DNA of 64,000 bases from Gemmatimonadota bacterium (GTDB lineage: Bacteria; Gemmatimonadota; Gemmatimonadetes; Palauibacterales; Palauibacteraceae), in contig OZ220691.1 in the NCBI GenBank assembly GCA_965116475.1, positions 1,440,001 to 1,504,000 on the forward strand. The letters are read 5' to 3'. Below the pieces are notes generated by a model. The model was not told the DNA's origin. It worked only from the letters and a program-made list of their open reading frames with translations, and searched no databases. This document shows positions 40,801-44,823 of this stretch, piece after piece. Both the position numbers and the translations under genes were made by a program. Within the stretch, counting starts at the first letter, position 1; every line of letters starts with the position of its first letter.

Positions 40801-41067
40801 CCCGGCGCTACCGACGGACCCGGGCGCCTCCGCCTCCATGTCGGTCTGCGCATGCGCGGCGCCCGCGCCCACGAGCAGGGCGACACCCGCCAGCAGGACG
40901 GCCGTCAGGCGGCGGCCCCCGGCCCGCGAACAGGCCGAGCCCGGCCACGGCGGGGCGGGAAGGATCGGGCGGGCGGATGCCGCGCGAGGCCGATGGGCCC
41001 CCGAATCTTCCTCGGCAGGAAAAACCGCTGGGCTCATCTCTCGTATGTGGGAATCGTTGTCCGACAT
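31888..41067 (-). CDS. Giant (3059 aa) surface adhesin-like protein: SwmB-like repeats, Ig/cadherin-like and Calx-beta-like domains, FN3, LRR, complex C-terminal tail
   Basis: Signal peptide (AAHA/Q); repeated TVAY.DPT..DD.NAVQD.AGNDAATF; DA.LS.L.LS cadherin-like; TITDDD; FN3 YRFAVRAVN..G.G; LRR LPxGIFDDL. Confidence 0.88.
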   Translation of the reverse strand: MSDNDSHIREMSPAVFPAEEDSGAHRPRAASARPILPAPPWPGSACSRAGGRRLTAVLLAGVALLVGAGAAHAQTDMEAEAPGSVGSAGSSPSERAGSPTRRSVSYKASPTFVSAATSTDGTEIVITFSELLSSMTAPASSFTVLVNGSTRGVSSVSASGTDVTLTLASAVATGDTVTVAYMDPTANDDANAVQDAAGNDAATFAAQTVTNRVDLVAPTLVTTGDGAPKTSNDGKKVLLTFSEALSATTAPTSAFTVTVDGSARGVSSVFAGGFLTAGPVTLVLTTAVTAGQTVTIGYTDPNTDDDENAVQDRAGNDAATFSAQTVTNNARAGTEGEVIWSVDMTVGTYTVSSSGFTYHVAGYDGEDAVGRISGSAAFMYDGTTYTVLGLDVTEFVGLGVTLYLYTTPHFPSPSDHPLVLDLDGTQFRVDQSAKQIYDANVSSLEWDNQGLTWSDGEPVAAKLIAVSGPEVASVAVVDAPTDDLYAIADTIDLAVTFTKDLTLDVTGGTPGLELTVGDSTRTATCAAATGTQLTCRHVVDEGIEGAIGVAANKLTLNGATLVGPNDLSADTTYTADEVGIDADLRVDGVRPTLVTSGTGAPKTTASGSAIDLRFSETLSTTTAPASAFTVTVDGQPRTVEVVAANLIDRTVALTLSPAVTTGETVTVAYMDPTANDDANAVQDAAGNDAATFDAQAVRNVVGPEVVSLALSDAGTDGAYGIGDTVSVTVTFTDSVDVAGVPRLDIDVAGSDKPLDYSSGTGTTALLFKGYVVAESEEDTDGIEIAANELELNGGTIRKKGSTTINAIITHAAVAADATHRVDGVRPTFVSAVTSTNGAIIDLTFSERLSSTTAPASAFTVLVNGSTRGVSSVSASGTDVTLTLASAVATGDTVTVAYADPTANDDANAVQDAAGNDAATFAAQTVTNRVDLVAPTLVTTGDGAPKTSRDGKKVLLTFSEVLSATTAPTSAFTVTVDGSARGVSSVFAGGVVAAGPSVTLVLASAVATGETVTVAYMDPTGSNDENAVQDAAGNDAATFSAETVTNNAGPGTEGDVLWSVEMTVGTSMETSGPLVGHTVGYESTTDGVVGSLSRSDPFEYGGTPYALFALAHSITLVNDVVIDNELIYWLSPRISAAPDDLLVLALDGTEFRLDEATGTESHDWDNPGLAWSDGEPVDVQLIAVPGPEVASVAVVDAPSDDLYAIADTIDLAVTFTKDLTLDVTGGTPRLELTVGDSTRTATCLIAAGTQLTCRYPVDEGIAGAIGVAANKLTLNGATLEGPNGLAADTTYTADEVGIDAALRVDGIRPTLVTSGTNAPRTTPGGRGLYLDFSEDLSPTAAPASAFTVTVDGTPRTLRGTVDQSDTQVILFLASAVAPGETVTVAYMDPTAGDDANAIQDLAGNDAATFDAQTVRNDVEPAVASLALSDAGTDGAYGIGDTVSVTVTFTDSVDVTGTPRLDIDVAGSDKQLDYSSGTGTTALLFKGYVVAENDSDDDGIEIAANELELNGGTIRRKGSTTSDAFIAHAAVAADATHRVDGVRPTLVTSGTNAPRTTPDGIGIHLHFNEELSQTTTAPASAFTVTVAGTARTVTSVHPAALEVLLVPASAVAGDQTVTVGYMDPTTGDDANAVQDLAGNDAATFTAQTVMNRVPSTDASLSALTLSGVTLEPTFHTDSLNYTSTVVHSVSLTTVNPTTSHTSATVAYVDASDEALTDASTADGFQVAVEVGANTIGVRVTAQDGVTQKTYVVVVTRQPSDDARLSGLNLSGVTLTPLFHPDSTSYTGSAPHSVAMTTVSAVKSHVSATVAYLDGSDQALVDADAADGFQVALEVGANTIKVRVTAQDGVTQKTYTVVVTRHVMAATGVTLSVSPAEVGEGDGQTALSVTGTLNGGAFTEDRTVALSVSPVTASASEDFTAGTAMLTIVTGQTSGMATLTLTPMDDDVDEDDETVMVAGTASGGLTVTGATVTITDDDTRGVGVSETSVEFDEGGSGTYTVVLESQPTATVTVGVSVAGDADVTVSPPSLEFTTSDWDEPRTVTVRAAQDLDAAGDTATVSHTVSGGDYGANGVTAASVQIRVTDDDTPSTGVTLTVMPGRVGEGEGQTPLSVTGTLNGAALAADRAVSLSVSAGTAASSDFTAGTATLTIEAGATSGTATLSLTPVDDDVDEDDETVTVAGTVSGLAVTDATVTITDDDTRGVAVSATALSIEEGGSGTYRVALESRPTATVTIGVSVSGDSDVTASPPTLTFAPGDWDTAQPVTVSAAQDVDKNADEATVSHAVSGGDYGSVTARSVQVRVADDDIDLEIRTNVTTLREGEETRLWVQTSGSTFETVQTVTLELGGTATSGSDYTLSEPNITIAAGATTGGVTLAALSDSESEDDETVVIAAHHGTVAIGSVTVTIVDGTVTARAPDAPVDLTAVPGSREVTLSWTAPGDDPGFPPYNGGAPVTRHDYRVDGGSWRGIPGSGAGGANMETYTVGGLANDREYRFAVRAVNRAGPGASSREVRATPSGGICGRTPQVRDAILGWLGGSKGCGGVTADDLASISGGLWLNHLNIASLKAGDFDGLTAVTEVDLSGNRISSLPTGIFDDLSALTMLDLDGNRLSSLPANVFDQLALLRELDIDDNRLRSLRAGVFDRLAALEELNLRDNQLTSFPYEEINELANLRQLRLSGNPVYEHGVVVSETALTIAPGGSGAYRMRLNQHPPAGAAIEPQPDSAGVTASPASVSYGRTDWFRYKEVTVTVAQNATASSAVIGHKAVNYGPPGMATPSVRVTIPQSAGDVAGQDVAGQDAAAQDAADLDALLALVDRLTPEQASEALFGERELSEAQLDALDRLGNRNGEYDLGDLMAWIERCRSGEADCGSTPGEPGAASSAFFLLGAAAAGRRRSHGRRGRPGAGRRRARGAVLAVLLAAATAWSCTGDLAGPPAAAREPGAQAVELPMPAATPRGPGFLTVEWTAPAAGRAVGVLLELEGPEIEAVEAAAGLELYHSAASGKHRIVVAGPLEDGPLLRFRVPDRDRISQYRVRVLQVTGEDYGLRDLGGHRAVISPH

Positions 41068-44823: not shown

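Follow-up and report, generated by a model that had tools for sequence, protein, structure and literature searches.

In gut bacteria and in pathogens, phase variation through the inversion of a promoter is a familiar phenomenon. Tyrosine recombinases operate such invertible promoters at fimS of Escherichia coli (FimB/FimE), at the promoters of surface structures in Bacteroides and in Clostridioides difficile (RecV). In Salmonella the H segment is inverted by Hin, which requires an enhancer and Fis. The tyrosine recombinase Cre of phage P1 is known for other functions, namely phage or plasmid circularization, dimer resolution, and the maintenance of phages and plasmids. Here, we analyze a stretch of 64,000 nucleotides (nt) from a Gemmatimonadota bacterium (contig OZ220691.1, positions 1,440,001 to 1,504,000), called the window throughout. 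It contains one gene for a Cre-type tyrosine recombinase, which is bracketed by a 32-nt inverted repeat and located between a divergent giant surface-protein gene (the adhesin gene) and a hybrid regulator gene. We think it probable that the segment 41093-42286 (the cassette) is a self-contained invertible switch with its own promoter, that the adhesin gene is off in the assembled orientation, and that the regulator gene has a separate promoter.

The similarity to Cre/loxP concerns both the enzyme and its sites. The recombinase resembles Cre over the full length and has the same catalytic residues, including the tryptophan that replaces the second histidine. The sites consist of two inverted arms of about 13-14 nt around a short asymmetric spacer, and a site adjoins the gene. 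In contrast to loxP, with a spacer of 8 nt, the spacer has 7 nt here and 6 nt in many relatives. Furthermore, two inverted chromosomal sites bracket the gene next to a giant surface-protein gene, and the expected reaction is promoter inversion, whereas Cre performs circularization and dimer resolution.

The fimS, Bacteroides, and RecV switches have in common with the window locus a short segment between inverted repeats, a promoter that would drive a surface gene in one of the two orientations, and the dominance of one state. They differ in that the recombinase is of the Cre type here and is encoded within the flipped segment, that in many members of the family the -35 element lies in invertible DNA and the presumed -10 element is the site spacer, and that a hybrid kinase-regulator gene is linked. 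The hosts are also different, i.e. uncultured sponge-associated bacteria with several phylum labels. The Salmonella H segment likewise contains an invertase gene and an outward promoter, but Hin is a serine recombinase, in contrast to the tyrosine recombinase with lox-like sites found here. XerC/XerD-dif shares a distant tyrosine-recombinase similarity and sites with ATAA...TTAT arms, but the window recombinase is far below the cut-offs of the Xer models.

The Cre-type set Cre, Dre, Vika, Nigri, and Panto has been described (PMC10250229), and a term search in that paper gave no relevant passage on native functions, on flanking inverted sites, or on the window cassette. A term search in PMC10469786 returned nothing on the window cassette. 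Likewise, the literature searched contained no description of the window cassette, no example of phase variation by a Cre-type enzyme, and no case of a sponge symbiont that inverts its DNA.

A Cre-type recombinase gene between inverted lox-like sites

The genome that carries the window comprises one contig of 3.62 megabases (Mb). A preliminary description, made from the letters of the window alone, had placed the cassette between divergent genes, and the open reading frames (ORFs) confirmed this arrangement. All sequence features named in that description were present; the gap between the adhesin gene and the left site is 25 nt (41068-41092) and not 26. The locus contains the following features:

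31888..41067, minus strand: giant surface-protein (adhesin-like) gene, 3059 amino acids (ORF, Pfam)
41068..41092, minus strand: adhesin leader, 25 nt, with the ribosome-binding site GAGGG at 41078-41074 (sequence)
41093..41127, unstranded: left lox-like site with outer arm 41093-41106, spacer CTGGTAG 41107-41113, and inner arm 41114-41127 (inverted repeat and core search; the division into arms and spacer is our reading of the sequence)
41128..41187, plus strand: non-coding stretch 5' of the recombinase gene with the conserved blocks TAT, TTG, and CACTTATGC (12-locus and 57-locus alignments)
41188..42186, plus strand: Cre-type tyrosine recombinase gene (Pfam, similarity to Cre)
42209..42237, plus strand: outward promoter-like element TTGGAC-N17-TATCGT at the 3' end of the recombinase gene (sequence, conservation)
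42252..42286, unstranded: right lox-like site with core 42261-42277 and spacer CTACCAG 42266-42272, inverted relative to the left site (inverted repeat and core search)
42251..42291, plus strand: terminator-like hairpin of the right site plus six U (terminator scan, RNA fold)
42310..42381, plus strand: promoter-like region that belongs to the regulator gene and lies beyond the cassette (conserved in 12 close loci and in a 53-locus alignment)
42475..44823, plus strand: hybrid two-component regulator gene, one polypeptide (Pfam)

For comparison, two sets of related loci were available. Across the order, homologues with an expect value (E) of at most 1e-60 occurred in 5 of 145 genomes, all of the window's genus, Palauibacter, with 12 cassettes (the close cassettes). 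A wider search, with one genome per species, yielded 371 relatives, and the best 80 of these were examined.

The recombinase gene probably starts with the GTG at 41188, alternatively with the ATG at 41227, and ends at 42186; a conserved N-terminal extension is in frame upstream of the ATG. The protein matched the Pfam families Phage_integrase (4e-15) and Phage_int_SAM_1. A phmmer comparison aligned residues 30-307 with residues 39-332 of Cre (E 1e-29), which covers the N-terminal and the catalytic domains. A profile built from 10 homologues reached an E of 1.1e-34 with Cre, versus 1e-6 with XerD in the PDB. The motifs LRRSE, RAK, GHSPRVG, GRW, and QRY align with residues of Cre that we take to be R173/E176, K201, H289/R292, W315, and Y324, and the corresponding residues R158/E161, K186, H263, R266, W289, and Y298 are invariant in the 10 homologues. 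The catalytic set has a tryptophan where most tyrosine recombinases have a histidine. A Xer/dif identity was considered and rejected, because the NCBIfam models for XerC, XerD, and XerA gave only 42-45 bits, compared with cut-offs of 220-335. Judged by its sequence, the recombinase is of the Cre type and not a Xer protein. The stretch 41128-41187 presumably contains its own weak promoter.

The inverted-repeat search detected two arms of 32 nt (41093-41124 and 42255-42286), which are 94% complementary and have 1130 nt between them. Each arm contains one copy of a 17-nt core, GATAACTGGTAGTTATC (GATAA-CTGGTAG-TTATC), for which 0.03 chance matches are expected; the observed count was reached in none of 100 shuffles. 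Each site comprises two arms of about 14 nt, alike at 11 of 14 positions, around the asymmetric 7-nt spacer. The spacers of the left and right sites are oppositely directed, and therefore recombination between the two sites should invert the intervening DNA. The architecture is conserved: in all 12 close cassettes the gene is bracketed by inverted sites of about 32 nt, with arms that vary between loci and spacers of 6 or 7 nt. In the wider set, 60 of the 80 examined loci have inverted repeats of at least 24 nt with a GATAA...TTATC core on either side of the gene; shorter matches were found in 9 loci and none in 11, some of which are cut by contig ends or by the limits of the search.

Orthologous loci in opposite orientations

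The orientation of the cassette was compared in a set of 86 loci (L025-L110). The regulator gene is located downstream on the same strand in 44 of them and on the other side and the opposite strand in 3; another 3 contain fragments, and 36 have no such gene. For two of the 3 loci with the regulator gene on the other side, another genome has an orthologue in the usual orientation, and these two pairs contain the cassette in opposite orientations relative to the flanks:

L062 versus L076: cassette collinear, 92% identity; regulator flank swapped and reverse-complemented, 96.6%; giant-gene flank likewise, 88.4%
L052 versus L061: cassette collinear, 96.6% identity; regulator flank swapped and reverse-complemented, 98.6%; giant-gene flank likewise, 92%

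In both pairs the identity extends through the flank and the repeat and breaks exactly at the inner edge of the repeat. Opposite orientations at orthologous loci with breakpoints at the repeats indicate that the cassette inverts in nature, as the preliminary description had proposed. Re-insertion in the opposite orientation would give the same picture and is considered less likely. Arm asymmetry was tried as a means to separate inversion from re-insertion, but the flipped pairs have arms of too high symmetry for a decision. The recombinase encoded in the cassette would be the enzyme that catalyzes the reaction.

A third locus, L070, was not counted as an independent flipped locus, because it starts at the first base of its record, the end of the record is not continuous with it, and it may represent an assembly break. 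This 4.8-Mb record (G145:C1:1-3876, loci L070 and L132), which is labeled as a chromosome, opens inside a cassette that is flipped in comparison to a 99% identical copy at 812-819 kilobases (kb). Either the cassette is present there as a genuine second copy, or a mixture of orientations led to a break in the assembly.

The flipped cassette L052 contains a transposase gene of the IS256 type (Mutator family) between one of its sites and the start of the recombinase gene (L052:1520-2954). This insertion may have locked the L052 switch.

The region was found in 10 sequencing data sets from 6 studies, none of them of RNA. The runs X1, X2, X11, and X3 yielded no joint with a change of strand, and a Hi-C run of raw reads contributed no reads at this place. 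We regard this as a weak test and not as evidence that the flipped form is absent.

Position and direction of the promoter-like elements

The adhesin has a long N-terminal leader, followed by a stretch like a signal peptide; its N-terminus contains ...GGRRLTAVLLAGVALLVGAGAAHAQ. Its Pfam matches are SWM_repeat in seven stretches, LRR_8, Cadherin-like, Calx-beta, and fn3. The start codon is the ATG at 41067-41065 (minus strand), with the GAGGG 6 nt upstream, as had been described. A paralogous copy in the same genome differs at 9 of the 32 nt that surround the start (41057-41088), yet it has a GTG start and a GGAGG ribosome-binding site in the corresponding positions, and six related loci have kept a GGAGCGAG-like ribosome-binding site plus ATG. 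The conservation of both elements makes this start credible, and the 25-nt gap to the left site is too short to accommodate a separate adhesin promoter, in line with the preliminary description.

This arrangement is widespread. In most loci examined, a long ORF on the opposite strand begins 15-110 nt outside the site on the 5' side of the recombinase gene, and in more than 20 loci it runs for at least 900 amino acids to the end of the fetched DNA. The close cassettes have large fn3, Calx-beta, or cadherin proteins on the side without the regulator. Of 18 scanned ORFs on the giant-gene side, 14 contain fn3, Calx-beta, LRR, cadherin-like, SWM, or RTX domains, including three alphaproteobacterial loci and one Chloroflexi locus, and 4 had no Pfam match.

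The promoter-like element inside the cassette, TTGGAC (42209-42214)-N17-TATCGT (42232-42237), is located on the plus strand and directed outward through the right site, exactly where it had been predicted. Nine of the 12 close cassettes have TTGG and TTATCGT (once TTACCGT) separated by 17-18 nt of variable letters, whereas the remaining three have a different 3' region. In the wider family, other elements occur at the 3' end of the recombinase gene. The most frequent Gemmatimonadota type has TTGCCG-N18-TACAAT, and others have TTGACC or TTGACT-N16-TATCTT, TTGCCT-N17-TATTGT, and TTGCTT-N17-TAGAAT. In the proteobacterial/Chloroflexi type, a perfect TTGACA precedes the site spacer by 16-17 nt. To quantify the asymmetry, TTGnnn hexamers 9-14 nt upstream of the site core were counted at the 3' end and at the mirrored 5' end:

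Gemmatimonadota-type loci: 28 of 51 at the 3' end of the recombinase gene, 0 of 51 at the mirrored 5' end
Proteobacterial/Chloroflexi-type loci: 12 of 14 at the 3' end (9 of 14 with a perfect TTGACA), 0 of 14 at the mirrored 5' end

Hence, across the family the outward promoter-like motif is found only at the 3' end of the recombinase gene. Loci of this split type have TACAAT, TACAGT, or GACAGT as site spacer at the expected -10 position, and the spacer reads outward at both sites. The spacer might thus serve as the -10 element and the invertible DNA provide the -35 element, so that only the site flanked by the -35 element would fire and inversion would carry the -35 element to the opposite site. 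The element of the window clade, TTGGnn-N17/18-TATCGT, is complete and located about 20 nt further inside. The mean weight-matrix scores were 11.9 bits for the outward 3' direction, 11.1 for inward 5', 10.2 for outward 5', and 9.5 for inward 3'; the loci are related, and no significance is claimed.

The one-sided outward element together with the lack of room for an adhesin promoter suggests that the present orientation of the window is most likely adhesin OFF. The preliminary description had assumed the same state, with inversion aiming the promoter at the adhesin gene, and this half of its proposal is supported; the other half, regulator ON, is not. In the proposed switch, the Cre-type recombinase would act on the inverted sites around its own gene and flip the 1.2-kb segment. 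The promoter at the 3' end of the recombinase gene would fire outward through the adjoining site. In the assembled orientation it would point away from the giant gene, and the adhesin would be OFF or low. After inversion, transcripts from the promoter, as well as those reading through from the recombinase gene, would cross the left site, where no U-run follows, and the adhesin would be ON.

Several observations weigh against this proposal. The element TTGGAC-N17-TATCGT agrees with only 7 of the 12 letters of the E. coli consensus and is missing from the output of the promoter scan. The weight matrix favored a different element at the right end of the window cassette, TTGATA-N19-TATTTT inside the site, and the difference between the outward 3' and outward 5' scores (11.9 versus 10.2 bits) is modest for related loci. 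All promoter scoring was based on an E. coli-type consensus, which may not be that of Gemmatimonadota. The only match of the promoter scan in 40800-42800 was the weak TTGATA-N16-CACAAT on the minus strand in the left site (41120-41093); it had been noted in the preliminary description, and it could possibly drive the adhesin gene regardless of orientation. In the L062/L076 pair the downstream gene is small (423 and 243 amino acids); it may have decayed. The contigs of the DNA runs X1 and X2 span both sites in the reference orientation only, while contigs drop rare variants and the shared repeat has 27 nt. Finally, one orientation is found in 44 of the 47 loci with a neighboring kinase gene and in 8 of 8 in the genus. 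Such a bias would be unexpected for a freely reversible Cre-type reaction and would need selection or an orientation-dependent expression of the recombinase; it would also fit a majority state in which the adhesin is ON.

This last possibility leads to the most serious competing explanation, i.e. the same Cre-type switch with reverse polarity, in which the majority orientation would be adhesin ON by means of a leftward promoter in the 5' region of the recombinase gene or in the left site. The common orientation would be easily understood if the host selects for expression, and the 9.2-kb adhesin frame is intact. However, a TTG-type -35 element is absent from the mirrored 5' end in all 51 and all 14 loci counted above. 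More than 90% of the loci in the 57-locus alignment share the block CACTTATGC (CATAAG on the minus strand), but neither in the window nor in the consensus is CATAAG accompanied by a -35-like element 16-19 nt away. The TTGATA-N16-CACAAT is indeed directed toward the adhesin gene, but it sits in the recombinase-binding arms and is missing in other clades. We therefore regard the reverse polarity as rather unlikely and favor adhesin OFF in the assembled orientation.

A low-depth contig of run X1 (depth 2, 6 differing letters in 114) fuses the end of the recombinase gene to the right site (window 42184-42252) and skips 67 nt that contain the promoter-like element. It probably represents a related cassette of another strain.

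The hybrid regulator gene and its own promoter-like region

The regulator has the Pfam domain order GAF-PAS-HisKA-HATPase-receiver-Trans_reg_C, the last one being an OmpR/PhoB-type DNA-binding domain; partial matches to NCBIfam models of the PhoB/MtrA/PhoR type were below the cut-offs. The gene probably starts with the TTG at 42475, which is in frame with the ORF 42436-44823, is preceded by a conserved GGAG, and lies 188 nt beyond the right site. Upstream of it, two tandem pairs of GTGRCC boxes were found with an 11-nt spacing within the pairs and about 16 nt between them, i.e. GTGAGC-N5-GTGACC (42310-42326) and GTGGCC-N5-GTGACT (42342-42358), followed after 17 nt by TATCCT (42376-42381). Every one of the 12 close loci has the boxes and the TATCCT, and they are likewise conserved throughout the 53-locus alignment. 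Genome-wide, the tandem-box pattern was found 11 times versus about 16 expected, and 4 of the 11 are in the window and the paralogous copy. The tandem boxes resemble what we take to be Pho-box-like promoters activated by OmpR/PhoB-type regulators, which suggests that the hybrid protein may autoregulate its own gene via the predicted boxes. In the proposed switch the regulator gene would thus be a conserved partner of the cassette, with a separate promoter beyond the cassette that is probably under the control of the regulator itself.

The motif GCCAC-N6-GTCAC before the ATG of the recombinase gene was also considered as a pair of regulator boxes, in this case aimed at the adhesin gene. It is explained more simply as part of the in-frame N-terminal extension, in which ..PAT..S.. 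is conserved as protein, and the candidate was rejected; a regular expression for these boxes matched 7 of 43 kinase-linked loci. The motif, within 41188-41226, is similar to the tandem GTGAC boxes upstream of the regulator gene, and it accounts for 2 of 6 genome-wide matches of its pattern. A dual role in coding and binding is possible.

The hairpin of the right site has a predicted stability of -18.2 kcal/mol (RNA fold z -4.28), with six U directly behind it. In the direction of the adhesin gene, the left site also forms a hairpin but has no U-run. Transcripts of the cassette should therefore be halted only toward the regulator gene, so that at the window locus they should stop before that gene, but enter the adhesin gene after inversion. 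The site plus U-run would act as a terminator that shields the regulator gene from cassette transcription. Among the related loci, a T-run follows the kinase-side site in 10 of 22 non-split-type loci versus 1 of 28 split-type loci, and it occurs on the giant-gene side in 1 of 50.

These results bear on the central claim of the preliminary description, that one promoter toggles between the adhesin gene and the regulator gene and creates mutually exclusive states. In the assembled orientation the outward element indeed points toward the regulator gene, which follows downstream on the same strand in the 44 loci mentioned above, and in the split-promoter clades, where 27 of 28 loci have no T-run after the kinase-side site, read-through would be possible. 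However, in every aligned locus the regulator gene is preceded by a promoter-like region of its own, with boxes and TATCCT, that is not part of the cassette, and in the window the hairpin and the six U are located between the cassette promoter and that gene. In addition, the proteobacterial and Chloroflexi-type cassettes lack such a regulator, and their 3' neighbors vary. The claim was not upheld; a toggle with the regulator is probably wrong, and we give it little credence in comparison with a separately promoted regulator gene.

The regulator gene is a frequent but not a constant neighbor. It is located downstream on the same strand in 8 of the 12 close cassettes, 1 has a remnant, and 3 have none within 1.5 kb. 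Gemmatimonadota-type loci without the kinase-regulator gene include L016, L018 (in genome G013), L029, L033, L035, L041, L044, L046, L049, and L056. At least L008, L012, and L024 have kept the box-plus-TATCCT region outside the site though the regulator gene is missing. In the proteobacterial-type loci no consistent partner was found on the 3' side, where the neighbors are LuxR-type, LysR-type, transposase, or unknown genes.

Second copy and distribution of the cassette

The module is doubled in the genome. Window 31904-39840 corresponds to C1:3285611-3293582 (97.0% identity) and window 40078-44818 to C1:3293834-3298559 (97.3%), so that the duplication comprises 13 kb and takes in both neighbors and not the cassette alone. 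Both copies contain the cassette in the same orientation. They differ at 6 positions of the cassette; this paralogous cassette (L005) is 99.5% identical and thus closer than its flanks. The high identity may reflect gene conversion or recent exchange. Between the two duplicated blocks, about 240 nt within the adhesin gene (39840-40078) could not be aligned between the copies, and the G+C content falls to 0.56-0.62; this may be a variable segment of the surface protein.

The 80 examined relatives carry the labels Palauibacter, a sponge-associated member of the Gemmatimonadota, and 'Longimicrobiales' (69-90% identity), Vicinamibacterales (74-76%), and Latescibacterota (76%), and at 56-62% identity Gamma- and Alphaproteobacteria and Chloroflexi. 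Several have sponge-derived names, and many of the genomes are multi-copy. In a sample of the phylum, a close homologue was found in 15 of 401 genomes, in two families only. A scan of JGI metagenomes yielded 23 relatives, few of them close, and added one locus, L106, in the standard orientation.

This distribution is what gives some appeal to a selfish mobile element, in which a recombinase between terminal inverted repeats would insert beside giant genes in either direction and have no regulatory role. The cassette is multi-copy (2 copies here, 5 in G013, and at least 8 on one contig of another metagenome-assembled genome (MAG)), recombinases of 58-80% identity occur in MAGs labeled as several phyla, the occurrence in the phylum is patchy, and a reversed insertion at the same site would mimic inversion. 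To our knowledge, Cre-type enzymes invert DNA between two inverted sites, and we know of no mechanism by which they would transpose. Copies at unrelated places that moved without their neighbors, as is typical of insertion sequences, were not found, while empty sites were not searched for. We consider a selfish element very improbable, because the surroundings do not vary (a giant gene begins at the site 5' of the recombinase gene, and a cognate kinase-regulator gene with a conserved promoter adjoins the 3' site), the two genomic copies stem from the 13-kb duplication with both neighbors, no cassette occurred outside such contexts among the loci examined, and the promoter asymmetry would have no obvious use.

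Sponge symbionts are noted for giant proteins with eukaryote-like repeats, which are thought to mediate host contact. It is tempting, though we are more doubtful than confident, to view the invertible switch as a horizontally shared plug-in module for phase variation in sponge microbiomes, which would gate giant eukaryote-like surface proteins in at least five phylum-level groups (by MAG labels). Many of these modules would have a split promoter, with the -35 element in the mobile DNA and the -10 element in the lox spacer, and the Gemmatimonadota-type modules would bring their own sensor kinase-regulator, which could couple switching or exclusive adhesin expression to a signal. If this is true, sponge symbionts stochastically vary giant surface proteins, across MAGs labeled as several phyla. 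In addition, the family is a source of numerous natural Cre/lox-like pairs for which the cognate sites are known, and of a compact design for a split promoter.

Two further large genes are located near the module in the window. Downstream of the regulator gene and outside the duplicated block, an open frame of 1187 amino acids without a Pfam match extends from 44977 to 48540. On the other side, a gene for a Big_2/LRR protein of 1156 amino acids (28348-31818) is convergent with the adhesin gene, and a similar Big_2/LRR gene is also found near the cassette L018 in G013.

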